IMG/VR virus record: IMGVR_UViG_3300047561_001970
Coordinates: 1-64,000 of that record
Length of the DNA: 64,000 nucleotides
Source: a virus
Lineage: Duplodnaviria; Caudoviricetes
Direction: 5' to 3' (one strand)
Each line of letters opens with the position of its first letter. Positions within the stretch are counted from its first letter, which is position 1. A program made the translations under genes and the position numbers. The notes under the pieces are model-generated. The model was not told the origin of the DNA. It did no database searches and saw only the letters and a list, made by a program, of their open reading frames with translations. This document shows positions 15,479 to 63,365 of this stretch, piece after piece.

Positions 15479-15870
15479 TGTAGGACATAACCCCGCACAT
15501 TAGGGTCAAAGCGTAGAACTTTGCCAGTGTTGCCTAAATTCTTGGATTGTTGTGCATTAAGTCGAGAGATGCCATACTTCTTACAAATTTGTTGTATTTC
15601 GTCTTCGGATAGCTTCTTGCCACTCATGTTACTCACAGCCTGTATGGCAGTATGATCCGCTTTGTGCACATCTGGAACAGTTTGAGCATGCTTTCTGAAT
15701 TTGGGATCTTTGATAACCTTTCGGTGCCGCTCTGTTGGTTTGTCTGGATTGACTTTGGGGAAGATGGCACCAGAATAATGTAGCTGCCCTATACCAGTGT
15801 TCCATGTTGTGGCAGAATTAATTAAATCCTCTTGAAGAGCCTGCAGAAACGCTTCCTTAAAGATACTCAC
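15475..15870 (-). CDS. Hypothetical late protein (candidate internal head protein)
   Basis: 131 aa, begins MSIFKEAFLQALQE-D, basic C-terminal half. Confidence 0.8.
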   Translation of the reverse strand: MSIFKEAFLQALQEDLINSATTWNTGIGQLHYSGAIFPKVNPDKPTERHRKVIKDPKFRKHAQTVPDVHKADHTAIQAVSNMSGKKLSEDEIQQICKKYGISRLNAQQSKNLGNTGKVLRFDPNVRGYVLQ

Positions 15871-16846: not shown

Positions 16847-18583
16847 ATGGAGAAAAAAGAAAAATATTATCTTGGTAATGATAGATTACCAACATCAGAT
16901 ACCAAACATGCATATACACCAGAAATGGTTAATGAGCTCAAAAAGTGCAAAAGAAATTTACTGCACTTTGCTGAAAATTATTTCTTTATTATTAATCTGG
17001 ATCGTGGCAAAGAGAAAATTAATTTATATTCCTGTCAGAAGAAAGTGTTGAGAACTCTGAGAGACGGCAGATTTGTTATTCTGCTGGCGTCACGACAGAT
17101 AGGCAAAACAACTCTCATGACCATATATTGCTTGTGGAATGCATGCTTTAACGAGGATCAAAGAATTTTAATTGTAGCAAATAAAGAGCAGACAGCAAAA
17201 AATATTTTTAAACGAGTTCGCATGGCATATGAAATGTTACCCAATTTTCTGAAACCAGGGGTTGTGGAGTATGGACAAACCAGCATGACACTAACAAATG
17301 GTAGTAGCATAGGAATCAGTACTACAAGCAGTGATGCAGGTAGAGGTGATAGCTGCAATTGTTTGATTCTTGATGAGCTAGCATTCATTGATAACCATAT
17401 TGTGGAAAGATTTTGGGAATCAGTATATCCTATTATTTCTAGTAGTAAGAAGAGTAAGATTTTTATTGCAAGCACGCCAAACGGGACAGATAATCTGTTC
17501 TATAAACTATATACAGGTGCCCATGCTGGTGATAACAACTGGGTTTCAGAACGTATTGACTGGTGGGAGATTCCAGGTCGTGATGAAAAGTGGAAAAATG
17601 ATACAATCAAAACTTTGGGAAGTGCAGAAGCCTTCTCACAAGAATTTGGTAATGAATTTATCCATGGTGGTGAAAGCACAGTTGATGAAGCTTTGTACAA
17701 TAGCTTGCAAAGAGAAATACGAGAGCCAGAATTTATTTTTGATGAAGGAAAATATCTTGTATGGGAAGAACCTCGTGAAGGCAGAATATACACTGTTGGT
17801 GTAGATATCAGCGAGGGAGTGGGCGAGGCTGCAAGTGTGGTACAAGTGCTGGATATCACTGATCTAACATCCATAGAGCAAGTGGCAGTGTACCACACGC
17901 GCGACACAGTGCCATTTCAGTTGACTACAAAGTTATTAGAAATTTTAAATCAATGGGGCCGCCCACCGGTGAGCATAGAGCGAAACAATTGTGGTGCTCA
18001 AGTTGTTGAACAGCTTAAGTTCACACATAGATATGAAAATATTATTTCATGGGGAGCCAAAGCTGGTGATAAGAATGAAGCAAAGCGTGTTGGTATCCTA
18101 GCCCATACTAACACCAAGTATAGAGGTGTGATGAATATGCGATATTGGGTAAATGAACTCAAAGTTGTTCGAATACGCGACATCAACACACTAAAAGAAT
18201 TAAAAAACTTCATACGATACCCCAATAACACCTGGAGTGCTCGGCCTGGCGCAGACAGTTGGGATGATCGCATAATGTCATTAATATGGGCATTAATAAG
18301 TTTAGAAAATGAAATTTGTGTAAAATACTTTGATGTTGTTTCTCTTGATGATTGTGATCGCCCACAAGTTATTAAGCCGCTGGACTATGGAATCAGAGGT
18401 GTTATAAGCCCGTTTAGTATGTATTCTAATGAAAAACTTGGTAACAGTGATCAAAATATTCTCCCTGTGGTGCTAGACAATGCAAGCGAATTGGTTAGTG
18501 ATATAGAGATCATGAAACAGCAAGGGTGGGAATTTCCTAACCAGCAATCTGATGATATAAATAACTCGTGGCAACCCCTGTAA
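16847..18583 (+). CDS. gp17: Terminase large subunit
   Basis: LASRQIGKTT, Walker B LILDELAFI, IASTPNG, FSQEF, nuclease GVDISEG, ERNNCG, DDRIMS. Confidence 0.97.
   Translation: MEKKEKYYLGNDRLPTSDTKHAYTPEMVNELKKCKRNLLHFAENYFFIINLDRGKEKINLYSCQKKVLRTLRDGRFVILLASRQIGKTTLMTIYCLWNACFNEDQRILIVANKEQTAKNIFKRVRMAYEMLPNFLKPGVVEYGQTSMTLTNGSSIGISTTSSDAGRGDSCNCLILDELAFIDNHIVERFWESVYPIISSSKKSKIFIASTPNGTDNLFYKLYTGAHAGDNNWVSERIDWWEIPGRDEKWKNDTIKTLGSAEAFSQEFGNEFIHGGESTVDEALYNSLQREIREPEFIFDEGKYLVWEEPREGRIYTVGVDISEGVGEAASVVQVLDITDLTSIEQVAVYHTRDTVPFQLTTKLLEILNQWGRPPVSIERNNCGAQVVEQLKFTHRYENIISWGAKAGDKNEAKRVGILAHTNTKYRGVMNMRYWVNELKVVRIRDINTLKELKNFIRYPNNTWSARPGADSWDDRIMSLIWALISLENEICVKYFDVVSLDDCDRPQVIKPLDYGIRGVISPFSMYSNEKLGNSDQNILPVVLDNASELVSDIEIMKQQGWEFPNQQSDDINNSWQPL
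18556..18563 (+). promoter_or_regulatory. T4-type late promoter
   Basis: TATAAATA inside the gp17 3' end, 4 nt before GTG 18568. Confidence 0.8.
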
Positions 18584-32174: not shown

Positions 32175-32182
32175 TATAAATA
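32175..32182 (+). promoter_or_regulatory. T4-type late promoter
   Basis: TATAAATA, 5 nt before ATG 32188. Confidence 0.8.
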
Positions 32183-45997: not shown

Positions 45998-48900
45998 ATG
46001 CTCACCAGTTTTGTAACACCAAGTAATTATAAAGGATTGAGTGCATCCTATATATATGATAATCAAATAGATTTCACTAATAAGAGTATAGGCATCGATG
46101 GTAATCTATCTACTTTTTTTTCTCCTATTTTCTTAGAAACACATGACTTTAATAACAACAATTATAGCTTTCTACATTTGACAAAGCCTTTGAATTTAGC
46201 TTCAATTACAGATTTTAAGACGCCAGAGAAACTCAATAATGTGTTATTTGGTACCATATACAACCCTGTTAACGGTGTAAACAGGTATTTAAATCTTACA
46301 AACATACCCACAGTTACACCTACAGGGTTGTCACAACTATCCTACACACAATCCATGGTTGTGACGCTATCCGGTATTGTAAACAATTGTATTTTTGAAA
46401 TAGATATGGTTAGCCCATACTCTGCTACTATATCTCACCTTACAACTAGAAACCATCTTTACTACTTGTCGTTTAACCCCAGCTCATTAAGTTTAGATTT
46501 TCTGGTGTTGAGTGCGTTTAGCGCCTCTAACGATTATACAAGAAAGTTTGTGTACACTTTTGATAAAGACACAGGACAACTTACTCTGCAGGTAAGAATC
46601 AGAGGATTTGCATACTATGTTATATATGATGATAACAATCAAAAATTATCTCTATCCAGTACAAGCGATATTGCATTTAATAGTGCAAAAAAAGTCTTTT
46701 ATGTGGATTTTTTTGATGTGCCTACTGCCCCAGAGATTACTAATGATTGGGGTACATATAAAACTGGATTTAATCAAAATAATTTAAATATAAATGTTGC
46801 AGATAGTTTTTTTGGTATAGATAATAACTTCTTAATACATAGTGAGTATGAAAATCTTCAAGGATCTACATTAAAAACTAATATCCTAACCTTAAAGAAT
46901 CAACTTAATATAAAGAATCAGCAAGGCAGAGGCAATGTGTTTATTAATGAAAATTCAACTTTTTACAGAAATTATAATACCATTTTTTCAGGAAGACGAC
47001 AGGAGCAAGGATATGAAAAACTTCACTTCCAGTATGATTGTTATTCAACACCGCTTATCTTTAATCAAGGCAAAACAACATGGTTTCATACACCACAAAA
47101 TATGTATCCTTATAAAAGACTTAATATTAAATCATCAAAATTAGTGGAGGCAGGTGCAGTTGCAGGTAACCACCCATTAAAAAGTGATAAAGTTTTTAAA
47201 AAGCAAGCCAATTACAAGTATACAAGTAATCAAGGTGATGCTACAGGCGAGCAAACTGGTCAATGGCTCTGCAGCTGGCTTTCTGGTGGTAATGATAAAA
47301 ATGTAAGGCCTGTGTGGGTGGATAGATACTACACACCAACAAAAAATACAGCATTTCAAGCGTTATGTGCTATTGATGGCAATGTAACTTATATTACATC
47401 TTTTGATGGGTATAATTTAAAGACTGGTATTGTTGATACACCATCAAGTTTAACTCTAGAACCAGGATGCTGGTATGCTTACTCTCGCTTTGGAAAAATC
47501 GATGCTATCAATAATATTAATAGTATATCAAAGACGTTGAAACAGAAAAATTTCACATATTACTCAATATGGAATGGAACTAATGTTGATCCTGATATAG
47601 ATGACAATCTTACTTCATACACTTTTGATGGTCGTCGCTATAGTTACTTTGATGTTAACAATATTGCGTTAGATACTAATACGTTTACAATGACGTTATG
47701 GGCAAATAGTTCTGACTGGACTAAGCCTCTTGGTTATGAAATTTTTGGTAATTATAATGACTATGGTCTTGGAATTTTCAACTACTCTCAAGTGACCCCG
47801 TTGCTATTTTACGGTCAAAATGGCGCTCTTGCCGCGTATAATGCTGACCTGGATCTAGTGGATACATATGATACTGCTCTATCCACTTTTGGCAATATTG
47901 ATTTTGTTCTTCGTCGTGATGCTCTTAACTCCTTTCACGTTATTACTGATAAAATGCAGGTCGTAGAATATGATATACGTGAAACTATTATTGATGCAAC
48001 CCCTGCCCTTTCAAGCTCCAGGTATTCTATAATACATGCTTCCAATGATGAAGCTCGTGGCTATGTTTTATATTCTGATAAGAGTCTAAGCGCAATAGAT
48101 TTAACATCAAATCTTGTGTACCCGACATCTGCAGATCTAATTATAGGCAAACCTATTGACGCGCTGCAGGTGTCCAGGTTGTTGGATGGTAGAATTATTT
48201 TAGTAGACGGTACAAACAGTGTTGTTAGAAGTGATGGTTTGTTCTTCCTTAGTTCAGGCATTATATGCAAGTACAACACAACAACAAGCCAGCTCTGCAC
48301 AGTTGCTGGTACCAGAGGTACCTTTTCGTTTTTTAATATAGATAGAGATAATAACCTATGGGCTGGGGATAGTAATTTTATAGCAGTCTACGGCCCATAT
48401 CAAAATCTTACCTTCACTACTACACTCACGACAGCTTCAGCTTTTTCTACAAAACCTATTTACATACAAAACCTCACTTTTATAGAAAATTTTTATAACG
48501 GTGAACTGGAGAAGTCGGTACTGGTGACAGCGAGCGGTTCAGATATTACTAAAGCAGTAGGGTTAAAGCTAGACTATAACGGCAACGTGATAGATACTAG
48601 TTTTATTAACGTCAACGGCAATTATAACCCAAAATTTGAGCCCTGTAATCATAATTTTAATTATTCTTATTTGAAGTACCGGTATGGTACAGGAGTCTTA
48701 ACGTTTAAGACTAGATTATACAATCAATTCAACACAGAAGATATAACAATTCCTTCTATAACTGTTGAAGGTCGTGATTTAGATAGCGGCTACCATCACT
48801 TTGCTATTGCTCTAAACCCTCCTGCAGGTACATTAAAGCTTTATCTAGATGGAGAATTATATGGTACATCGTTATTTGAACCAAACAAATATAATTTTAC

Positions 48901-51227: not shown

Positions 51228-51983
51228 ATGGCAGGAACATTCAAATTTCATAGTAAGCTGCACCGTGCAAGTCACCACAGCTCTCCATCCATAACTATAC
51301 CTGATTCTAACACTGATCCCATTGCTTCACAACAACTACCATTCAACGGTATTTTTTATACTATATTAACAGATAATGCTGGTTCCTTCAGTATACCCAC
51401 CAATAGTTTTGAATGGTGGTCCACATACAGTACTGTGAATACTCTTTCTGGCAATTGGGCAAATACCCGCTCCATGTACACAACAATCAACACACTCTCC
51501 AACAATTGGAATAGCGCTTATGTGGCTTCCACGGTGTTCCGGGCAAATAGTGCAGAGTACGAATCTGTTTATACCACTGTTAGTGCATTTAGTGCACAAT
51601 GGAATTTTCCAGGTGTCATGTACCTGGGTGTTGCACAAGAATATACTGCTTCCAAGACATTTAGTGGCACAAATCTGGCCAATAACGATTCCCCTCTCAC
51701 GCTATCTTGGGATTTGGATACAAATCAATGCACTTTTTTGACTATGACAAACAGCTTTGTTGTATCAAATCCTCTCAACATGAAAAAAGGTGGCACATAC
51801 GTTTTAACATGCTTACAGACCAGTGTAGGTGGCAATGACGCCATTTTTGATACATCGTACCGTTTTAATGATACGCCACTTCAATCTGGTATAATAGATT
51901 TGACACCAAACCGTAGAACCGTCATAACTTTTGTCAGTGATGGAGTCTTAATGTATGGAGATGTAACCAAATACCTTGAATGA
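51228..51983 (+). CDS. Tail fibre-like protein (short paralog)
   Basis: His-rich N-terminus FHSKLHRASHHS; Y-T-T-V-x-x-L-S-x-x-W repeats; WDL...GGTYVL C-terminal domain. Confidence 0.7.
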   Translation: MAGTFKFHSKLHRASHHSSPSITIPDSNTDPIASQQLPFNGIFYTILTDNAGSFSIPTNSFEWWSTYSTVNTLSGNWANTRSMYTTINTLSNNWNSAYVASTVFRANSAEYESVYTTVSAFSAQWNFPGVMYLGVAQEYTASKTFSGTNLANNDSPLTLSWDLDTNQCTFLTMTNSFVVSNPLNMKKGGTYVLTCLQTSVGGNDAIFDTSYRFNDTPLQSGIIDLTPNRRTVITFVSDGVLMYGDVTKYLE

Positions 51984-54900
51984 GCAATACAACATTTCAC
52001 AACAAATTTCACAGTACCAATCATCACTCGGTATCAACATACGGTTATATCGACAGTGGTATTGACCCCATAGCAGGCATAGATGATCCTTTCATAGGAA
52101 CTTTCTATAATGTAATTCCCTCCTATGTACCTGCCATATCATCAAATAGTAAATTATGGCAATCAACCTTTACCACCTTGTGTGGTAACAGTGCAGATTA
52201 TTTTTTGTTTCGAACAACGTATAGCACAGTAACAGCTCTAAGCTCCAACTGGCAGAATGGTGCAAGTTTTGCCTCCACCTACAGCCAGGTGTCATCTAAC
52301 TATGAAAACACTTACACCATCACAAATACATATAGTGCCAATTGGCCATTCTTAGACACAACATATCGATTGACCTTGCCACAACAGGCCACACAGGCAC
52401 ATACTTTCAAAGGCACCACATTGGCACCTCAAATAATCTCAGCAACATTTTATGGAGATTTTATGAACGGTGACACAACATCCAACATACTCACTGGCAA
52501 TGTTTTTAATTATGTTCGAAATTCCTCTGCAAGTTTTGTAGATAGAGATGGTCAAATAAGATTTGTTGGGGAAAATGTGGCTCGCTCCAATTATGAATAC
52601 AACAATGCACGTGGTGCATGGCAGTGTGAAGGTGCACTGTTGGAGCGGTCCAATACAAATGTTGTGCCATATGGTGCAGATATTGTGAATTGGGATGTGC
52701 TGCCAAACAACGGAATGAATTGGGTGTCCAGGACTATAGATGCTAACAACTGGACCAGTGTCATTCAAGGGTTAACAGGAGGCACAACACCAGTGTATGT
52801 TGCATGCAGTAGTGGTGGCACAGCTGCAAGATTGGCCACATCACAAGATGGCATCAACTGGACTACCCAAACATCAACAAATAACTATAACTGGGGTGGT
52901 GTTGCGTTTGGTGCAAATGTATTTGCAATTGTTGGTAGCACTGGTGGTGGCAATCGAATAATAACATCAAACACTGGCTCCAATTGGGTTGGACGTGCAG
53001 CACCTGAACAAGCTTCTTGGACATCTGTGGCCTATGGTGGTGGTATTTTTGTTGCAGTGGCTGATGCTATTGCAGTTGGTGGCACAACATTATGTCAAGT
53101 CATGCGATCTGATACTGGTGTCACATGGGTGTCAGCTGCAGCTGCAGAAGGTAATGCATGGACATCTGTGGCCTATGGCAATGGTATTTTTGTTGCTGTG
53201 GCTTCCAGTGGTGCGAATCCTGTGATGGTGTCCAGCAATCAAGGTGCAACTTGGACTGCATACCCATTGCCTCAGAGCAATGTCTGGCGTTCAGTAACCT
53301 ATGGCAATGGTATTTTTGTTGCTGTTGCTTCCACTGGCACCAACCGGGTGATAATTTCATCTGATGGTGTGAATTGGAGCACAAGTGATGCCATAGAGCC
53401 AAACAGCTGGTATTCAGTAACCTATGGCAATGGTATTTTTGTTGCTGTTGCCCAAGATGGTGCAACACGCACCATGTACTCCCGCAATGGCAAAATTTGG
53501 CGTGGCTACCCAGCAGCTGCTGCACTTGGATGGCGAGCTGTCACATGTGGGCAGGATGGATTGTTTGTTGCACTTTCAAAAGATGGTGCACCCCGTGCCA
53601 TGACAACATACTTCACTGAAACATCACTTGCTGTTGATGGTGCCTCCCCTGCTTACAATTTACCCAGTACCGTTATCACCCCCATCACATCCAACACAGT
53701 ATACTCCTACACAATGCCCATCAATGCAAGCACCAATTACATCCTGTCATTGTATGTGAAACTTGGCACTCTGCCTGCAGCAGACTATGGCATAAAAATT
53801 GTGGACAGTGCATCCCTTGTTACATTGTCCAGTTACACAAACATATTATCGTCATTTTCATATGCGTTTCCTCAAACACAGTGGTATCGAATTGCTGTGC
53901 CTTACTTTTCAGCCACCAACACTTCCATTCGCGTGGCTCCTGCATACAAGTTCAAGAATTTTAACACTGAAAAAACTGTGTATGTGTGGGGTGCACAATT
54001 GGAAAGGAATCTAGATGTTCCCAATATCGCCCCGTCATCTTATATACCCACCATTGGCCCCTCATACCACACAAGAGACACTGAATATGGTTATCTGTCT
54101 GGTGATTTTCTTAGTAATACTGAAGGAACATTTTTATTTGAGACCAGATTAATTCCCAACACAACAGCGGCGTCGGCAAGTGGATTTTCTTTGTACAGAT
54201 TCACTAATGTCGATGCAAGCAACGCTGCATCATTGAGATACAAGAGTGATTACACTGTGAATGCCAGGGGCATGATTAACAATTCAACAGCGCTTGGGTA
54301 TGACATCAATTCACCCAACAACAGGATTGATTATCCTCGTGCTGTTGCACTGAGTTATACTGTTAACAAAGTTACATTGGCAGATTCAGGTAACATTGTG
54401 GCAACTGATATTGTGTCCTTGGTACCAGGCAATTTGAGCAGTGGGTTCATTGCAGCGTCAGCTGCAGGTGGTCAGGATGGGTTCACTGGTTATATCAGAC
54501 GCATTGGTTATTATCCTAGGAGACTATCAAACAATGTGCTGAAGTTTTTGACGCTCTCTGCACAAGAATACATCAATGTGAATCAGATTGAATTGTACAA
54601 TTGGGATCTGTCTGCCAATCAAGTTGCCTTTATTAATCTATCAGCAAATGCTTTTGTAACAAATGTTGCACCAGCGGAAACAAAGGACAAAGGTGGGGAA
54701 TATGCTTTGGTGGTACAGCAAGACAGTACTGGTGGTCGTACACTTGTATTTGATACAGATTATGTCTTTTCATCCAAAGTATATGAATTATCAAGTAACA
54801 CCACATCCATCATTGCACCATCCTCTCTGAGCGTAACTGTGATTCGATTCACAAGCAACAGTGACAAGTTGTTTGGTAAACCTACCAAATATTATTACAA

Positions 54901-55057
54901 TTTAAATGCAGGTTATACATATTTCGATGGGCCTGGCATAAACTTGGTTCCAGCACCAGCTGGTGCAAACACAGGAGATGCAATAACACCTGCAGGTGGG
55001 TTAACTGTTGGCGGAAGTGTGCCTTATTCTGATGGAGATGGAATAACTATTATATGA
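51980..55057 (+). CDS. Tail fibre-like protein (long paralog) with propeller repeats, CBM-like and LamG-like inserts
   Basis: Same N- and C-terminal domains as the preceding gene; internal W-x-SV-x-YGNG-x-FVAVA repeats. Confidence 0.75.
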   Translation: MSNTTFHNKFHSTNHHSVSTYGYIDSGIDPIAGIDDPFIGTFYNVIPSYVPAISSNSKLWQSTFTTLCGNSADYFLFRTTYSTVTALSSNWQNGASFASTYSQVSSNYENTYTITNTYSANWPFLDTTYRLTLPQQATQAHTFKGTTLAPQIISATFYGDFMNGDTTSNILTGNVFNYVRNSSASFVDRDGQIRFVGENVARSNYEYNNARGAWQCEGALLERSNTNVVPYGADIVNWDVLPNNGMNWVSRTIDANNWTSVIQGLTGGTTPVYVACSSGGTAARLATSQDGINWTTQTSTNNYNWGGVAFGANVFAIVGSTGGGNRIITSNTGSNWVGRAAPEQASWTSVAYGGGIFVAVADAIAVGGTTLCQVMRSDTGVTWVSAAAAEGNAWTSVAYGNGIFVAVASSGANPVMVSSNQGATWTAYPLPQSNVWRSVTYGNGIFVAVASTGTNRVIISSDGVNWSTSDAIEPNSWYSVTYGNGIFVAVAQDGATRTMYSRNGKIWRGYPAAAALGWRAVTCGQDGLFVALSKDGAPRAMTTYFTETSLAVDGASPAYNLPSTVITPITSNTVYSYTMPINASTNYILSLYVKLGTLPAADYGIKIVDSASLVTLSSYTNILSSFSYAFPQTQWYRIAVPYFSATNTSIRVAPAYKFKNFNTEKTVYVWGAQLERNLDVPNIAPSSYIPTIGPSYHTRDTEYGYLSGDFLSNTEGTFLFETRLIPNTTAASASGFSLYRFTNVDASNAASLRYKSDYTVNARGMINNSTALGYDINSPNNRIDYPRAVALSYTVNKVTLADSGNIVATDIVSLVPGNLSSGFIAASAAGGQDGFTGYIRRIGYYPRRLSNNVLKFLTLSAQEYINVNQIELYNWDLSANQVAFINLSANAFVTNVAPAETKDKGGEYALVVQQDSTGGRTLVFDTDYVFSSKVYELSSNTTSIIAPSSLSVTVIRFTSNSDKLFGKPTKYYYNLNAGYTYFDGPGINLVPAPAGANTGDAITPAGGLTVGGSVPYSDGDGITII
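53018..53451 (+). repeat. Four near-identical in-frame propeller-blade repeats
   Basis: Units start at 53018, 53159, 53285 and 53408 (spacings 141, 126, 123). Shared core cctatgg(c/t)(aa/gg)tggtatttttgttgc. Confidence 0.85.
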
Positions 55058-56046
55058 TGATTTGCAGTGATGTGGAGCCGGTGAGTTCTTTCTATAGTAC
55101 CAACCTGCAATCCAAGATTCAAAGCTATGAACGGCTTGGACAACGCATTTGCCGTGCATTGGGTGCGCCACTCATAAACATAGAGATTCATGCAGATCAA
55201 TTGAATGAGTTCATCAGCATGGCAAGTGAGATGTTCACCAAATTTGCAGGATACACACAAGAATATTTGGTGTTTGATAGCAAGCTGTATGAAGAGCTCA
55301 AAGGTCTGCGATTGGATGTGTTGTTTAGTTTGACCAAAGACTTTAACTTCAGAGCTCAATTCAAAGATGTTTCTCCAGAGATTAAATCCATGTACACAAT
55401 TGGTAAGATGGTCATTGGTGACCCAGCAGATCCATATCTATACCAGGTGGTGGATCAAAATCGTCCCAAAGAATTAGAATTGTTGAACAGTTATGATTAC
55501 TTGCTGGATGATTACCGCCGTGTCATTGATGTCACAGAATTTGAAGAAGGCAGTAGCAATGGCATAAACACTTTGTTCACCATTGAGCAAACATTGGCAC
55601 AGCAAACTTATTTCAGCTATGCTTTGGGCAACTATGGGTTTGATTTGATCAGTTGGAATGTTTTGAAGAATTGGTTGGATACTCGTGAAAAAGTTTTAGC
55701 TCTGAGACGGGATTTTCACTTTGACAGTCGCACACAATACATGCAATTGTATCCACCACCTCGCAACACACATTTTTATGGCATTGTCACAGCATATGTG
55801 GAACGCCCGCTGGTGGATATCATTAAGGAGCCATGGGTGTATCAATATGCTCTGGCCCTTACAAAGATAGCCATTGGATCTGTGCGTGGAAAATACCAGA
55901 ACACTCAATTGTTTGGTGGAGGGTCCATCAATTATAATGATATGTTGAACAATGGGCGAGAGGAAAAAGCTGATTTAGAAAAGAAATTATATGAGCGTGC
56001 AGCAGGATTTGGTGATGCACCTCCACCTGAATTCTTTGTCGGATGA
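55054..56046 (+). CDS. gp13: Neck protein
   Basis: RALGAPLINIEIHADQL, WVYQYALALTKIAIGSVRGKY...LFGGGSINYNDM. Confidence 0.9.
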   Translation: MMICSDVEPVSSFYSTNLQSKIQSYERLGQRICRALGAPLINIEIHADQLNEFISMASEMFTKFAGYTQEYLVFDSKLYEELKGLRLDVLFSLTKDFNFRAQFKDVSPEIKSMYTIGKMVIGDPADPYLYQVVDQNRPKELELLNSYDYLLDDYRRVIDVTEFEEGSSNGINTLFTIEQTLAQQTYFSYALGNYGFDLISWNVLKNWLDTREKVLALRRDFHFDSRTQYMQLYPPPRNTHFYGIVTAYVERPLVDIIKEPWVYQYALALTKIAIGSVRGKYQNTQLFGGGSINYNDMLNNGREEKADLEKKLYERAAGFGDAPPPEFFVG

Positions 56047-56498
56047 AGTTTACACCAAAAAATAACAAGTACATACAGGGCATTTTTAAGCCCACGCATG
56101 CACAAAAATACAAAGGACATGATTTGCCACGCTATCTTAGCAGCTGGGAATTAAAATTGTTTCGCTGGTGTGATAATAATCCTAATGTGATTGAGTGGGG
56201 GAGTGAAAGCATTGTTATTCCATATGAAAGTCCCATAGATCACAAAATGCATCGTTATATTGTTGACGCAATAATAAAATTAAAAACAGCTGGTGGCATA
56301 AAGAAATTTCTGGTGGAAGTCAAACCACACAAACAAACTGTAAAGCCTGAAGAAACACCTGGTAAGCATAAAAAAACTCTTTTATATGAACAGTTAACGT
56401 ACATACAGAATCAGGCCAAATGGCAAGCTGCAAAAAAATGGTGCACAGAGAGAGGATACGAATTTACTATTTTAACAGAAAAAGAGTTGAGAAAATAG
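56043..56498 (+). CDS. gp4: Head completion nuclease
   Basis: YLSSWELKLFRWCDNNPNVIEWGSESIVIPY, RYIVD, LVEVKP, KWQAAKKWC...FTILTEKEL. Confidence 0.9.
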   Translation: MKFTPKNNKYIQGIFKPTHAQKYKGHDLPRYLSSWELKLFRWCDNNPNVIEWGSESIVIPYESPIDHKMHRYIVDAIIKLKTAGGIKKFLVEVKPHKQTVKPEETPGKHKKTLLYEQLTYIQNQAKWQAAKKWCTERGYEFTILTEKELRK

Positions 56499-56509
56499 AG
56501 TAAACCATT

Positions 56510-56517
56510 AATAAATA
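56510..56517 (+). promoter_or_regulatory. T4-type late promoter
   Basis: AATAAATA, 4 nt before ATG 56522. Confidence 0.75.
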
Positions 56518-56521
56518 ACAT

Positions 56522-58556: not shown

Positions 58557-60029
58557 ATGAAATCAATCAGACCGACAACGGCCTATATTGATGAGTCTCG
58601 CGCCAAAGCGTTGCTCGAAAAGTGGAAGCCAGTTTTGGATTACACTTCAGACAACGTCAGGCCCATTGAAGACGATCACACTCGCTTAAATACAGCTATG
58701 CTCTTGGAAAACCAAGAGTCCTGGTGTATTGGCGAAGCGAACGTTGCCGGTGGAACAGGCTCGGTATTCGGTGGTTCATACAGTGGTACAGGTGGAATGG
58801 GTGGCCAAGGCGGTGCTTTTGGCAACGCGTCCCCCCAAGGCGACTGGTATGCAACTGGCGATTCCCGCTTGCCCAAGATACTCATCCCAATGATTCGTAG
58901 AACGTTCCCCGAGCTAATCACCAATGAAATTGTAGGCGTACAGCCCATGGGCGGACCAGTAGGTCTTGCCTTTGCTTTACGTTATAAGTATTCCGCTAAC
59001 CAGCTAGGTAATGATGGCGTCGACGGTTCCGGCACAAATGCCGGTGCCGCTCTCGGCAGCCCTCAATCCGCCGCTGCAGGCAAAGAACTTGGCTACCAGT
59101 ATCTCGATACCCGTTACACGGGCACATCGAGCTCTAAACTCTCCGGTGGCGATGCCTTGGCAGCCTCTCTCTTCCCCTCAATCGGGGCAGATCAGGGCGT
59201 TGCTCAGGTCCTCGCTAACTTCGAATTGACGGGTAAAATCCCTCAGATCGAAGTTTCGTTTGAAAAAACGGCCGTCGAAGCTGGTACTCGTAGACTTGCT
59301 GCACGCTGGTCTGTGGAACTCGAACAGGATCTTAAGAACATGAATGGCATCGATATCGATACCGAACTCACCAACGCTATGTCGTATGAGTTGCAGGCCG
59401 AAATCGATCGCGAAATGATTGTTCGTATGATCCAAGTTTCGCTGAATGCTGGAGCCGGTACAGGTTATTCTGTATGGTCCCCCGCTTCCGCGGATGGTCG
59501 CTGGTTAGTAGAGCGCAATCGCGACTTCTACCAACGTTTGATCATCGAGGCTAACAGAATCGCAGTTCGTAACCGTCGTGGTGCTGCCAACTTTATAGTT
59601 GCAACACCTCGCGTTTGCGCGATTCTCGAGATGCTTCCTGAGTTTCAATGGGTGCCCGTCCAAGGCAATGTCAACACTCAACCTGTTGGCGTAGCCAAGG
59701 TAGGCAACCTAGGTGGTCGTTTCAACGTATACCGTGATACACGCACAGAAGCCCAATATGAGGGTGGATTGCGTGGTACGCGCGTAGAGTACGCCCTATT
59801 GGGCTACAAAGGACCAGAGTTTTATGACACTGGTATCATCTACTGCCCGTACATCCCGGTTATGGTACAACGTACAATTGGCCCCAATGACTTCAGCCCC
59901 CGTGTTGGTCTTCTGACCCGCTACGGTGTTGTTGATAACATCTTTGGCGCTAACTTGTATTATCATACCATCTTGTTGAGCGGTCTCGGTCAAGCGTTCA
60001 CGCCCGGTACACAATCTGTGTACTTCTAA
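58557..60029 (+). CDS. gp23: Major capsid protein
   Basis: LLEKWKPVL, LIPMIRRTFPELITNEIVGVQPMGGPVGLAFALRY, RRLAARWSVELEQDL, YCPYIP, F-S-PRVGLLTRYG. Confidence 0.98.
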   Translation: MKSIRPTTAYIDESRAKALLEKWKPVLDYTSDNVRPIEDDHTRLNTAMLLENQESWCIGEANVAGGTGSVFGGSYSGTGGMGGQGGAFGNASPQGDWYATGDSRLPKILIPMIRRTFPELITNEIVGVQPMGGPVGLAFALRYKYSANQLGNDGVDGSGTNAGAALGSPQSAAAGKELGYQYLDTRYTGTSSSKLSGGDALAASLFPSIGADQGVAQVLANFELTGKIPQIEVSFEKTAVEAGTRRLAARWSVELEQDLKNMNGIDIDTELTNAMSYELQAEIDREMIVRMIQVSLNAGAGTGYSVWSPASADGRWLVERNRDFYQRLIIEANRIAVRNRRGAANFIVATPRVCAILEMLPEFQWVPVQGNVNTQPVGVAKVGNLGGRFNVYRDTRTEAQYEGGLRGTRVEYALLGYKGPEFYDTGIIYCPYIPVMVQRTIGPNDFSPRVGLLTRYGVVDNIFGANLYYHTILLSGLGQAFTPGTQSVYF

Positions 60030-60071
60030 GCCGAACTCAACGGTAGTACTAAATTTCCAGTATGTCCTGGT

Positions 60072-60101
60072 AAAAAAAGAGGCCTTCGGGCCTCTTTTTT
60101 T
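60072..60101 (+). terminator. Rho-independent terminator with C(UUCG)G tetraloop
   Basis: AAAAAAAGAGGCC-TTCG-GGCCTCTTTTTTT after the gp23 stop. Confidence 0.95.
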
Positions 60102-60121
60102 GTTTAAAGGTATGCATAAAA

Positions 60122-60129
60122 TATAAATA
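60122..60129 (+). promoter_or_regulatory. T4-type late promoter
   Basis: TATAAATA, 4 nt before ATG 60134. Confidence 0.85.
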
Positions 60130-60133
60130 ACAT

Positions 60134-61219
60134 ATGGCCATAGTACCACTTTCTGACTTAAAAACTTCATTCTCATCTGGCCACATTCCAAGCTCCAATG
60201 ATTTTGCAAACTTAATTGACACCACCAGCGCTCTACCCTCAGGTGGTATCATTGGTTCAGTATACACAACAAACTTGACGCTAGTGCAAGGCGCGACCGG
60301 GATCCCCGTGATTATAGGTGGTAATACCTATTATCTGCCTGTGTTCACCACAGTCACTGCACCTTCACCAAACCAAACAGCATACACCACCACAGTGAGA
60401 CAAACATATCCAAATGCAATGCTGGCAGAAACTGTGGGTGCAAGATGTGCCACAGTCATACAGAGTCTGTGTGGTTATGCACCAGGTGATGTGATTGCAG
60501 CAGCTTGCATATGCTCAGATGATAAAAATGCTCCCATTTTCCCCAACAACACATTTGGTCAATACCCCACATCTTTGCAACAATTTTCTGGGCCATTCTT
60601 CGCAGGTGGCATTGGTGGTTATCCTTTCCCAGGCATTGTGGGGCTGTTTGCATGGATGAGCCATGTGACCACACCTGGTGCATTGTTCATATATGTGCAC
60701 CCACACATTGGCATCACTCAGAGTGGTCAGGTGGGGTTCATGAAGCGCCGAGGTCAACAAGGCAATCTGGATCGAACATGTGGTGCTGTGAATGCAGCAC
60801 AAGCCAGAATTGTGGGTACACTGAGTGCAACAGCACCTGTATTCCCAAGTGCAGAATTTACTGTTAATGATTTTCAACAATATACTCTGGTGAATGCACT
60901 GTATTCCAACAAAACCACACGCAATGCACTCACAGCAGCTGCACCAGTGCAAGGTGGCACATATGCCCAGAGAATGAAGATAGCTACTGATGCTATTCTG
61001 GTTGCAGCATTGAGTGCAGTGGAAACAATTTTGCCCATATCTTATGGTGCCTTCTTCCAGGGTGAAAACACAGTGGATGTGTTTGTGCATGCAGGCACAT
61101 TCATCAATGTGGATGATGGTTACAGTGCTTACATAGACACCATTGCATTCAAGAAATACAATCCAGTCACACAGACATTCACCACCCTCACCAATGCTTT
61201 CACAGCAGCTTTTGTTTGA
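60134..61219 (+). CDS. LCIB/LCIC-family beta-carbonic anhydrase with structural-type N-terminal module
   Basis: CSDD, GPFFAGGIGGYPFPGIVG...SHV, LFIYVHPHIGI, RRGQ, TCGA: the LCIB-family signature with Cys/His/Cys Zn ligands and Asp/Arg. Confidence 0.85.
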   Translation: MAIVPLSDLKTSFSSGHIPSSNDFANLIDTTSALPSGGIIGSVYTTNLTLVQGATGIPVIIGGNTYYLPVFTTVTAPSPNQTAYTTTVRQTYPNAMLAETVGARCATVIQSLCGYAPGDVIAAACICSDDKNAPIFPNNTFGQYPTSLQQFSGPFFAGGIGGYPFPGIVGLFAWMSHVTTPGALFIYVHPHIGITQSGQVGFMKRRGQQGNLDRTCGAVNAAQARIVGTLSATAPVFPSAEFTVNDFQQYTLVNALYSNKTTRNALTAAAPVQGGTYAQRMKIATDAILVAALSAVETILPISYGAFFQGENTVDVFVHAGTFINVDDGYSAYIDTIAFKKYNPVTQTFTTLTNAFTAAFV

Positions 61220-61483: not shown

Positions 61484-61491
61484 TATTTATA
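61484..61491 (-). promoter_or_regulatory. T4-type late promoter preceding the ribozyme
   Basis: TATAAATA overlapping the stop of the upstream gene; no credible CDS follows. Confidence 0.7.
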
Positions 61492-62509
61492 CATAAACAT
61501 ACAAAGAATGTAAGTACCCTAAACCTAATCCGTCACCAGACACATGCACAGGTCCTGCACTCTTATATCTACCATGGTACTTAGCTGGTTTAAAATATTG
61601 TCCATCAGGGTATGTTACTGGATTAAAAGTCCAGCGATAAGCAGGCATAATGCTTGCATCTTGCAGTTTGTTGCTGTTGGTTTCAAAGGTTTCTGCCCCC
61701 CACATTATTCCTGTTCCTGAAGCTGGAATAGTAAAAAACCCTACTTGCCATTTATTAATGGCCATGTTGAACAATATGGTACCATCAAATGCCAGTACCC
61801 CACCTGTACTAGTTAACTGATATACTGGACCAAAATTATTACCATTGGCATCTGTATAGGAATCAGCTTTTTTAAAATATTCACCTTCAAATGTGCCACC
61901 ATCAGGCCCACCAGTTGTTAAGAAACCTTCTTGTGTAACAGTTTGTCTTCCTTGTTGTGGTCTCAATTGCCTGGATCCCCACATGCACCAGCTTATGATC
62001 AACCTAGCAGAACATGTCAAAGGCCGTGTAGAGCCTGTGCGATTTTTAATCCAAGCAGTTAAACTGGATTTGAATGCTGCACTGTTGTATTTGCTGTCAT
62101 TGATAATTTTTGTGAATTTAAAATTAGGGTATGAATAAAAAAGAGCTGCATCTGGCACATCTCTTATTCTTTTGATATTGTATGCTTGATGTCCGCTCAT
62201 AACATAATCTGTTGATGCATTAGCTGCCGATAAAGAAAAGCTGTGCATGGTTATGTATCTTTGAACCAGTCCTACTTTGCCACTTGTGGAGTATTTGGCA
62301 TCTAAATCACTATTTGCCTCACCACCATATCCATCATGTATCACATAACTATTGTTATAATATTCACTAATTTTTCCGCTATCTCTTGCTTGACCATCAT
62401 ATGTTATGAGAAGTGGTCGGCTTCGAGGGTAATTTTGAGGAGTACTCACACCATCTACTACCGAAATGGAAGTCTTCACAAACTGACTGGGCTGAGTTGC
62501 AATCATCAT
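61487..62509 (-). CDS. Hypothetical structural/fibre-associated protein
   Basis: 340 aa from ATG 62509 (ATGA overlap with the upstream gene); G/S/T/aromatic-rich. Confidence 0.75.
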   Translation of the reverse strand: MMIATQPSQFVKTSISVVDGVSTPQNYPRSRPLLITYDGQARDSGKISEYYNNSYVIHDGYGGEANSDLDAKYSTSGKVGLVQRYITMHSFSLSAANASTDYVMSGHQAYNIKRIRDVPDAALFYSYPNFKFTKIINDSKYNSAAFKSSLTAWIKNRTGSTRPLTCSARLIISWCMWGSRQLRPQQGRQTVTQEGFLTTGGPDGGTFEGEYFKKADSYTDANGNNFGPVYQLTSTGGVLAFDGTILFNMAINKWQVGFFTIPASGTGIMWGAETFETNSNKLQDASIMPAYRWTFNPVTYPDGQYFKPAKYHGRYKSAGPVHVSGDGLGLGYLHSLYVYV

Positions 62510-63351
62510 ATGTACCGTCCTATGAGATAAACTTTCAAACCCACACCAGGCATGGTACTGCCCACTTGTGTCACATTGATGCACATTCTGTCATTCTCTA
62601 CACATGCATAGCTAACTGCTGTATCAGCTACTACTGCCCCTGCAGTCATGGTCACTGTGCCTGCAGTGTTGTTGTTGGTTTGAGAGCTCAAAGAGAATAT
62701 GAGACTGGATCCAGTAGCAGCAGTATTCAGACCACCTTTGATTTTGGTCAGAGTGAAGCTTTGAGGCACAGTGAAAATTATTTTGGCATCACCTGTGGTG
62801 ATGTTGGCTTGTTCATCACTGGCTGCAAAAGCTAAGCTGGTCAATGACCAGGCAGCACTGTTGGTATTTGTAGTAGTGTATGTGCTGTTCCATGCATTGC
62901 TGTTGCCCCCAAGTGCAGTGATAATATTATTGGTACTCAAGACACCTGATACAGTAGTATTGCCAGATATGGCCACCTTGGCAGTGCTGTCAATTGTTCT
63001 TCCTATGGCAATTCTGGTACCAGATACAATGAAAGTGCTGGTATTGTAGGCACCAGCTACAACTGTGTCTGTGTCCAATACCTCCAATATGGGCAATCCG
63101 GTAATATCATTAACAGACATTAAGGATCCAGTCAGGGCATCAGAAACAGAAAACAATCTGCCCTGTGCACCATCCACGGTGAATCTATTCAATGCTGTTA
63201 GTGCTGTGGTATAGCTTGTAATGTTTAACCCACCACCATTATCGTAATTTAAACGAACAGCGCTGTTTAATGCAGCTACTGTAGAGGCTCCCGCTGCATT
63301 TCTATCAAAGAATATGGCGCCAGAAACAGGTACAACTAACACATTAGGCAT
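62506..63351 (-). CDS. Fibre-like structural protein
   Basis: DGAQGRLFSVSD...SVNDITGLPILEV module; NSNAWNSTYTTTNTNSAAW repeat shared with 51228/51980; C-terminal beta-sandwich. Confidence 0.75.
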   Translation of the reverse strand: MPNVLVVPVSGAIFFDRNAAGASTVAALNSAVRLNYDNGGGLNITSYTTALTALNRFTVDGAQGRLFSVSDALTGSLMSVNDITGLPILEVLDTDTVVAGAYNTSTFIVSGTRIAIGRTIDSTAKVAISGNTTVSGVLSTNNIITALGGNSNAWNSTYTTTNTNSAAWSLTSLAFAASDEQANITTGDAKIIFTVPQSFTLTKIKGGLNTAATGSSLIFSLSSQTNNNTAGTVTMTAGAVVADTAVSYACVENDRMCINVTQVGSTMPGVGLKVYLIGRYI

Positions 63352-63357
63352 ACATTA

Positions 63358-63365
63358 TATTTATA
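63358..63365 (-). promoter_or_regulatory. T4-type late promoter
   Basis: TATAAATA, 6 nt before ATG 63351. Confidence 0.75.

Follow-up and report, generated by a model that had tools for sequence, protein, structure and literature searches.

Why a T4-like phage should carry a carbonic anhydrase gene directly behind its major capsid gene, and whether the product acts inside the infected cell or on the particle, is the question raised by positions 60,122 to 61,219 of IMG/VR record IMGVR_UViG_3300047561_001970. The DNA studied (the window) was the first 64 kb of an 85,099-bp contig of an uncultured freshwater T4-like phage; close relatives of the contig came from freshwater-lake metagenomes. The open reading frame (ORF) concerned (60134–61219, + strand; 361 aa; P0001) comprises an anchor, a linker and an LCIB-type carbonic anhydrase. 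An earlier reading of the DNA, called here the original prediction, had proposed a late-expressed and possibly virion-displayed enzyme. The answer that is tentatively favoured here, with a confidence a little under even, is that freshwater-Bacteroidota phages carry a working carbonic anhydrase on the outer face of the particle, as the tip of a trimeric fibre-type handle, and that several lineages do so with different handles, acquired independently.

LCIB-type carbonic anhydrases are known from the CO2-concentrating mechanisms of algae and diatoms. The Pfam family PF18599 LCIB_C_CA was matched by residues 111–275 of the phage protein (85.5 bits against a cut-off of 25, E 4.2e-24), and HMMER aligned the sequence with solved LCIB-family structures (6kfs, E 1.6e-15; PtLCIB4 5b5y, E 3e-13). 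The enzyme domain, which has the beta-carbonic anhydrase fold (residues 81–361; 60374–61216, + strand), was modelled by AlphaFold2 with 30 homologues at a predicted local distance difference test score (pLDDT) of about 90, and Foldseek superposed the model on 6kfs (TMt 0.84) and 5b5y (TMt 0.78), both with prob 1.00; all eight matches at E ≤ 0.001 were LCIB-family chains, and the classical beta-carbonic anhydrases ranked next. The LCIB/LCIC signature of the original prediction was thus recovered by family profile, by PDB sequence matches and by superposition on LCIB-family crystal structures.

Equivalent positions in PtLCIB4 were counted along the HMMER alignments; the numbering of its zinc ligands was checked against the PDB entries named for the mutants 'S47R' and 'H88A'. 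The three zinc-ligand codons stand exactly where they had been placed (all on the + strand): Cys127 at 60512, first residue of C127-S128-D129 (60512–60520; PtLCIB4 C46-S47-D48), His191 (60704–60706; H102) and Cys216 (60779–60781; C126), as ligands 1, 2 and 3. Ser128 is the residue of active PtLCIB4, and D129 is the catalytic Asp; the S47R mutant of PtLCIB4 is said to be inactive. By position in the alignments to 5b60 and 5b5z, H177 (60662–60664) corresponds to PtLCIB4 His88, which PDB 5b5z has in mutated form, and R205 of the R-R-G-Q motif (60746–60748), the active-site Arg, to the first Arg of PtLCIB4 'RRGRE'. The equivalent Arg194/193 has been named as important, and disorder of the His and the Arg explains why Chlamydomonas LCIB and LCIC are inactive in vitro though their site is intact (review PMC5876011).

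In the alignment of the phage clade (the 121 best cluster representatives, 36–95% identity) C127, D129, H177, H191, R205 and C216 were kept in 121/121, which includes the Asp of C-S-D and the Arg of R-R-G-Q that the original prediction had picked out; position 128 was S in 113 and A in 8. The ratio of nonsynonymous to synonymous substitution rates (dN/dS) of the enzyme domain was 0.064 (21 close gene copies), i.e., strong purifying selection, which argues that the phages need its chemistry. These comparisons give good support to an LCIB-family gene product in which the catalytic set is complete and conserved; from the same residues, activity in CO2 hydration is inferred. Reuse of the fold as a purely structural domain, an option of the original prediction, is disfavoured by the invariant catalytic residues and the enzyme-domain dN/dS of 0.06. 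A shifted substrate, as in hydrolysis of carbonyl sulfide or CS2 by an enzyme of the same fold, would agree with the long stem of the phage clade and with further invariant motifs of its own off the classical site, such as GTFIN-x-DDG at residues 321–329, and hydrolases of both compounds with the beta-carbonic anhydrase fold do exist; the known active-site positions, however, carry no change that would indicate a new substrate, and this explanation is considered very improbable.

Relatives were numerous: 166 protein clusters at E ≤ 1e-3 in a metagenome protein database and 164 viral contigs encoding an LCIB relative in IMG/VR; zero matches to the whole protein were obtained by tblastn at E 1e-3 in 50,697 cultured-phage records. 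Phage context was checked for the window, six relatives and the IMG/VR loci; the remaining sequences are called 'phage' by similarity alone. The clade spans T4-like phages, a 172-kb phage, a 216-kb phage with two tandem copies and a crAss-like phage. The tandem genes of the 216-kb phage (L003:8001–9969) are adjacent and encode LCIB-family proteins of 368 and 285 aa, the N-terminal extension being found on the first only, an arrangement reminiscent of the LCIB/LCIC pairs of algae. A maximum-likelihood tree of 86 sequences placed all 30 that are phage-borne in a single clade (SH-aLRT 99; stem 1.03 substitutions per site) on a branch of its own, apart from the cellular Bacteroidota enzymes and nested in no host group.

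The nearest cellular homologues, sought in 185,579 species genomes, were nearly all from Bacteroidota and Balneolota (27–41% identity), in a scan that is biased to look-alikes because its peptide patterns came from the phage alignment. Those of Bacteroidota have about 245 aa and begin at the enzyme domain; they lack both an extension and a signal peptide. These homologues, and the taxonomic range of the handle described below, make a freshwater bacterium of the Bacteroidota the probable host; a cyanobacterial host with collapse of its CO2-concentrating mechanism was considered and dropped, both lines indicating Bacteroidota.

With these homologues the main rival explanation comes in: a soluble auxiliary metabolic enzyme, taken from the host lineage and acting inside the infected cell, where it would maintain the bicarbonate needed in carboxylations (carbamoyl-phosphate, purine, fatty-acid, anaplerotic) or buffer the cytoplasm, the N-terminal module being an oligomerisation or regulatory add-on and not a virion anchor. 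We regard it as possible, though on balance doubtful. The nearest cellular proteins are short, cytoplasmic and from the likely host phylum, the catalytic residues are strictly conserved, and auxiliary genes for carbonic anhydrases of other classes are on record from viruses (bioRxiv 10.64898/2026.01.21.700432); the long stem (1.03) apart from the cellular enzymes suggests, on the other side, a changed role and not a simple copy. Further evidence on this soluble enzyme arises from the N-terminus, the start signal and the neighbours of the gene, and is given with each of them.

The alternative that is preferred, an enzyme mounted on the particle, turns on the residues ahead of the enzyme domain. 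A two-helix anchor (residues 1–32; 60134–60229, + strand) with the motif L9-K10-x2-F13-x2-G16-x2-P19-x4-F24-x2-L27-I28-D29 is followed by residues 33–80 (60230–60373, + strand; dN/dS 0.24), which comprise a low-confidence loop, a beta-hairpin 57–61/64–68 ('...YYLPVF') and a T/P-rich linker. L9, K10, F13, G16, P19, F24, L27, I28 and D29 were invariant or nearly so in an alignment of 81 motif-bearing proteins, the conserved columns of which reproduce the motif LKxxFxxGxxPxxxxFxxLID as it had been written for this N-terminus. The T/P-rich linker held in part: the stretch is present at residues ~71–90, but residues 81–91 already lie in the first helix of the enzyme domain.

Residues 5–71 were aligned with residues 4–64 of gp46 of Flavobacterium phage lotta8-1, so that both the helical motif and the '...LPVF' hairpin are covered (tblastn against the whole collection, E 0.01; pairwise BLASTP, E 1e-8); gp46 is a protein of 635 aa, the gene of which stands behind the baseplate genes in the tail module of a small myophage. 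A weak match to phrog_22781 was also obtained (E 0.0024). The closest N-terminus is that of a 145-aa phage protein family ('MAIVPISTLKTKFESGDRPT..DLIDTTS'), ~66–69% identical to residues 1–32, which bridges the degenerate motif of the LCIB protein to the consensus. The phrog_22781 match, the tblastn and pairwise lotta8-1 matches and the 145-aa family are independent of the handle profile, which was made of four sequences (three LCIB N-termini and the N-terminus of lotta8-1 gp46) and found 158 proteins of 138–2000 aa, the E-values of FETGD-type proteins being partly circular with the lotta8 row included. Residues 1–78 as a single query found nothing among proteins of 633–2000 aa, and the family was found by the four-sequence profile only; an ESM Atlas search with residues 1–80 gave scores ≤ 0.78 and was left unused.

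The sequence 'LKxFFETGDKPTxxQFxDLIDS' was read from the listed N-termini, at residues ~6–31, in 106 of the 109 non-LCIB matches inspected, which are proteins of phages and prophages of Bacteroidota. In the three exceptions (P0336, P0360 and P0368) the FETGDKPT motif directly follows a signal-peptide-like leader, and the module may therefore serve exported cellular proteins too. The C-terminal parts behind the handle (138–910 aa) are mutually unrelated; most members have no annotation, and the recognisable C-terminal parts are tail-fibre domains: Peptidase_S74, Collar (Phage Tail Collar) and Phage_tail_C. Positions in a tail module were found in phages lotta8-1 and FPSV-S1 and at locus L143. 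The named sources of handle-family proteins are Flavobacteriia, and the cultured phages with the motif are Flavobacterium phages only, plus one crAss-like gut phage. That the handle is a genuine fibre-type N-terminal module of Bacteroidota-phage proteins appears well supported at the level of sequence. A T4-style N-terminal capsid-targeting signal was dropped as a candidate, since the module is a homologue of fibre N-termini and signals of that kind are far shorter. With a dN/dS of 0.24 the handle evolves faster than the enzyme domain; the value indicates purifying selection and hence a functional module. For the soluble enzyme this is an unfavourable point: the extension is a fibre-type handle, no generic tag.

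A model built with the handle-family alignment gave helices at residues 6–14 and 21–32 (pLDDT 73–83), then the hairpin 57–68; it was used for the handle only, residues 1–32 being improved and the enzyme domain degraded (mean pLDDT 53). Three copies of residues 1–80 scored an ipSAE of 0.50 (runs 0.37, 0.50 and 0.57) against 0.01 for the best control, with three copies and an alignment of its own and so outside the calibration, in which the mark was reached by 20/30 proteins solved as one-chain pairs and by 1/23 solved as single chains. The partner chains had a pLDDT of at least 54, no fewer than 40% of contacts agreed between runs, and the confident inter-chain contacts were made by the conserved motif residues and the hairpin. 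This prediction supports a trimeric handle.

The enzyme domain sits where the variable tip sits in a handle-plus-tip architecture, and the LCIB fold could accordingly be taken for a zinc-stabilised binding or structural fibre tip, for example a receptor-binding one, with a function other than CO2 hydration. The long branch of the phage clade would suit it, as would the inactivity in vitro of Chlamydomonas LCIB/LCIC despite their intact site (PMC5876011). Such a tip would not need H177, D129 and R205 invariant beside the zinc ligands (121/121); receptor-binding tips usually evolve fast, in contrast to a domain with dN/dS 0.064, and Ser128 is kept as in active PtLCIB4 and is not the Arg of S47R. 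This explanation is judged unlikely, and an active enzyme behind the handle is preferred to it.

The handle of P0001 is one of several in the clade, where the N-terminal extensions measure 0–134 residues (median 53). A comparison of every extension with the DNA that surrounds the remaining LCIB loci showed that no fewer than four further sub-clades have a different extension of their own, which recurs at the N-termini of neighbouring non-LCIB genes (45–74% identity over 27–70 residues; L026, L028, L029/L030, the L051–L086 group and the L079/L084/L087 group). The order in the T4-like phage of L079 is gp23, a PhoH-like gene, a 69-aa handle-only ORF, LCIB with the same handle, and repeat-rich fibre genes. 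For the N-terminus of the P0118-type relative no match was found among cultured phages. Among the comparative evidence, independent fusions to neighbour-shared handles speak most strongly for an enzyme that joins a multi-protein assembly, and the repetition of such fusions, with lineage-specific handles that fibre genes also have, suggests that it is a component of the particle. A soluble enzyme would leave it unaccounted for that different handles, common to neighbouring genes, were fused independently.

The place of the gene was followed in the same loci. The order gp23 then LCIB was found in 7/7 of the closest ones; in the one annotated locus of the 79%-identity group (L023) LCIB starts 15 nt after a T4-like portal gene, in a 69%-identity relative it lies beside a LamG/PKD fibre-like protein and a holin-CHAP lysis cassette, and in the crAss-like phage it belongs to a capsid-side module, ~2.7 kb downstream of the capsid gene. 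The gene thus keeps to structural or late regions and not to the capsid gene itself. At the gp23-LCIB junction of a 91%-identical relative (L001, 9551–9922) an extra ORF of 123 aa was seen, rich in N/T/S/A and with no handle motif, so that genes are gained and lost at this junction. Neither Pfam nor PHROG gave a match to Hoc (Ig-like) or Soc; capsid decoration of the Hoc/Soc type was dropped on this ground and because conservation of the position after gp23 ends with the closest relatives. The capsid decoration that the original prediction had drawn from this position is also opposed by the relatives of the handle, which are of tail-fibre type (Peptidase_S74, Collar and Phage_tail_C; tail-module positions in Flavobacterium myophages); since they are so, tail or baseplate would be likelier than capsid for a displayed protein. 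Of the three features to be surveyed in homologues, the catalytic residues are kept throughout (121/121) and the position only in the closest relatives, while in place of the anchor at least four other sub-clades have other handles and 22/121 members have almost no extension. The jumbo-phage relative L003, in which the gene lies amid small genes without a Pfam family on record, is more in line with a soluble enzyme.

Signals for expression were found on both sides of the gap between gp23 and LCIB. A 14-bp hairpin (A7GAGGCC / GGCCUCU7) with flanking A and T runs follows gp23 (60071–60102, + strand; RNA fold): dG -21.1 kcal/mol, z -4.57, 0/200 shuffles as stable. It is read as an intrinsic terminator, probably a bidirectional one. 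A simple terminator scan gave no site after gp23, though direct folding shows the hairpin; we think that the scan missed it through pairing of the A and T runs, which lengthens the stem. The late-type start signal TATAAATA, an octamer, stands 4 nt before the LCIB ATG (60122–60129, + strand), so that the start-proximal signal of its own behind a gp23 terminator, as originally described, is borne out. In the window TATAAATA is not enriched (10 found against 7.3 expected), and its placement is non-random, just ahead of start codons: for tail tube (18568), the gp25-like gene (32188), LCIB, the minus-strand ORF that starts at 15870 and the minus-strand ORF 62506–63351 the distance is 4–6 nt, and for the sheath gene it is 45 nt. 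Two further genes, that at 45998 and the one for the prohead protease, are preceded by one-mismatch variants, and the ATAAATAACAT-ATG of the latter is identical to that of LCIB.

As the start signal of LCIB is common to structural genes, late expression is a reasonable inference, and late timing is proposed from it. A start signal of structural genes would be late for nucleotide supply, a point against the soluble enzyme; the moron-like layout, with the gp23 terminator upstream and a start-proximal signal of its own, is a point in its favour. The form nATAAATA was observed only 4–6 nt before the ATGs of many structural genes, e.g. at 18556–18563, 32175–32182, 60122–60129, 63358–63365 (- strand) and, in genome numbering, 56507–56521, and most of the nATAAATA-ATG gaps hold no Shine-Dalgarno sequence. 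Should nATAAATA be a late promoter of the T4 type, late transcripts would have almost no leader or none at all, an unusual feature among T4-like phages; the sequence may alternatively be an A-rich translation start context of the Bacteroidota style.

The mechanism that is proposed can now be put together. A zinc carbonic anhydrase of the LCIB (theta / beta-fold) family, catalytically competent and from a phage-specific branch, would be fused through its domain 81–361 to an N-terminal module of ~80 residues, two helices and a beta-hairpin; the module would be the N-terminal handle of Bacteroidota-phage tail-fibre-type proteins and is predicted to be a trimer. The gene would be read together with the late structural genes, and the handle would mount the protein on the virion, at the tail or baseplate more probably than on the capsid. 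The best guess at a purpose is that a ready-made CO2/bicarbonate-converting or carboxylate-binding domain would be presented at the host surface during adsorption. For display speak the handle-plus-cargo architecture, its recurrence with other handles, the extension-free cellular homologues, the positions in structural modules, the shared start signal and the predicted trimer. On this evidence attachment of the LCIB protein to the virion is plausible, with chances about evenly balanced; that it is an active enzyme which is so mounted is put just short of that.

Several observations weigh against mounting, among them the place of the three-copy model outside its calibration. The highest dN/dS of the handle is that of the anchor (0.37), the motif of which is degenerate when set beside the consensus of the family (FSSGHIPS in place of FETGDKPT). 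The handle motif was found in no second ORF of the 85-kb contig, and no docking partner was identified there. Almost no N-terminal extension is present in 22/121 clade members, so the enzyme is useful to phages without a handle, as it would be if it were soluble. Beta-carbonic anhydrases work as dimers. The LCIB enzymes do likewise (review PMC5876011). With a dimeric enzyme family and a handle predicted to be trimeric, the symmetries must be reconciled, for example in a hexamer or trimer of dimers. Hexamers are reported for LCIB/LCIC. One enzyme molecule is unable to sustain a local gradient of pH or CO2 in the face of diffusion, which makes a role in surface chemistry hard to picture. Auxiliary genes of T4-like phages are also scattered among structural genes, and position alone therefore proves little.

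The surroundings of the gene are those of a T4-like structural region. Upstream of LCIB the order is a neck/gp13-like gene, a small TnsA-like ORF, the prohead protease gp21, the scaffold and gp23; the upstream neighbour, the T4-type major capsid protein gp23 (58557–60029, + strand; Pfam PF07068 Gp23, E 2.7e-89), is only ~35% identical to the capsid proteins of cultured phages (cyanophages). Tail sheath, tube and baseplate-wedge genes also lie within the window. An ORF of 151 aa between the neck and prohead protease genes (56043–56498, + strand) matched the PHROG 'head closure' family phrog_218 (E 5e-52). In L001 the corresponding ORF has the Pfam domain Tn7_TnsA-like_N, and the annotation can therefore be read either as a neck protein or as an endonuclease fold. 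A tail protein of 1,025 aa (phrog_5939; 51980–55057, + strand) has ~8 repeats 'W.SV.YGNGIFVAVA' (Pfam EPTP repeat, E 7e-9) and looks like a beta-propeller within a baseplate or fibre protein.

Five genes converge on LCIB: two without a family match, two LamG (Laminin_G_3) genes and one of 2,168 aa without a family match. The first (61487–62584) faces the LCIB stop with its 3' end; the ORF at 62506–63351 (- strand), without a family match, is termed fibre-like solely from its composition and LamG neighbours; the two LamG (Laminin_G_3) proteins are encoded at 63361–64074 and 64059–65330. Downstream of both lies the 2,168-aa ORF (genome 65332–71838, L144:4336–10839, - strand; no Pfam match), part of which is 74% identical to the tblastn segment L002:10979–12712, in a 1,195-aa protein of an unrelated 172-kb phage; the same locus L002 encodes LCIB besides this relative. 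A complete match to the group I catalytic intron Rfam RF00028 (61287–61505, - strand; 62.5 bits, gathering 50, E 6e-15) lies where the LCIB stop is separated from the 3' end of the convergent gene 61487–62584, with no obvious gene interruption.

A full-text literature search for LCIB together with phage returned nothing relevant, and the phage-only LCIB clade and its fusion to fibre handles appear to be undescribed. Were display true, the enzyme carried by phage virions would have a dissolved gas as its substrate and not a cell-envelope polymer, and it would be the first virion-displayed enzyme of inorganic-carbon chemistry; a CO2/bicarbonate-dependent step in adsorption, particle stability or host recognition would be implied, and the role of CO2, bicarbonate and pH in adsorption or particle survival in lakes would become a new question. 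Were it false, the gene would still be a widespread, previously undescribed auxiliary gene in phages of abundant freshwater heterotrophs, with a bearing on how infection reshapes bicarbonate-dependent biosynthesis.

Compared with the solved enzymes PtLCIB4 (5b5y) and 6kfs, the phage protein has the same fold (TM 0.78–0.84), the Cys-His-Cys zinc site, C-S-D, the His88 equivalent and the R-R-G motif; it differs from them in being phage-encoded, at ~20% identity, with a fibre-type N-terminal module of 80 residues, a separate long-branched clade and no link to a CO2-concentrating mechanism. With the LCIB proteins of Bacteroidota, the probable host phylum (Flectobacillus rivi, Flavobacterium caeni, Chryseobacterium and Chitinophagaceae; L089–L128), it shares 27–41% identity and a similar core of C-S/C-D-D and PHIG, whereas those proteins, of ~245 aa, start at the enzyme domain and stand on separate branches of the tree. 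At the N-terminus, the first ~70 residues including the LPVF hairpin are homologous to those of gp46 of Flavobacterium phage vB_FspM_lotta8-1 and of the 'LKxFFETGDKPTxxQFxDLIDS' family; the C-termini scanned in that family are fibre-like or unassigned, unlike that of the phage LCIB protein, and none is an enzyme of central metabolism. The term 'structural protein' in the lotta8 record is a similarity-based annotation and not one from proteomics.

An N-terminal docking module with a C-terminal enzyme is the established build of virion-associated phage enzymes (tailspike depolymerases, esterases and tail lysins), which the LCIB protein resembles; these act on cell-envelope polymers, whereas the envelope offers no obvious substrate to a carbonic anhydrase. 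A preprint on a freshwater-sponge virome (bioRxiv 10.64898/2026.01.21.700432) describes viral carbonic anhydrases of the alpha, beta and gamma classes as auxiliary genes; these are likewise virus-encoded, with conserved active-site residues and from freshwater viromes; they are of other classes and were read there as soluble metabolic genes, with LCIB-type enzymes and handle fusions unmentioned, and it is by its class and its putative fibre-type handle that the LCIB protein stands apart from them.

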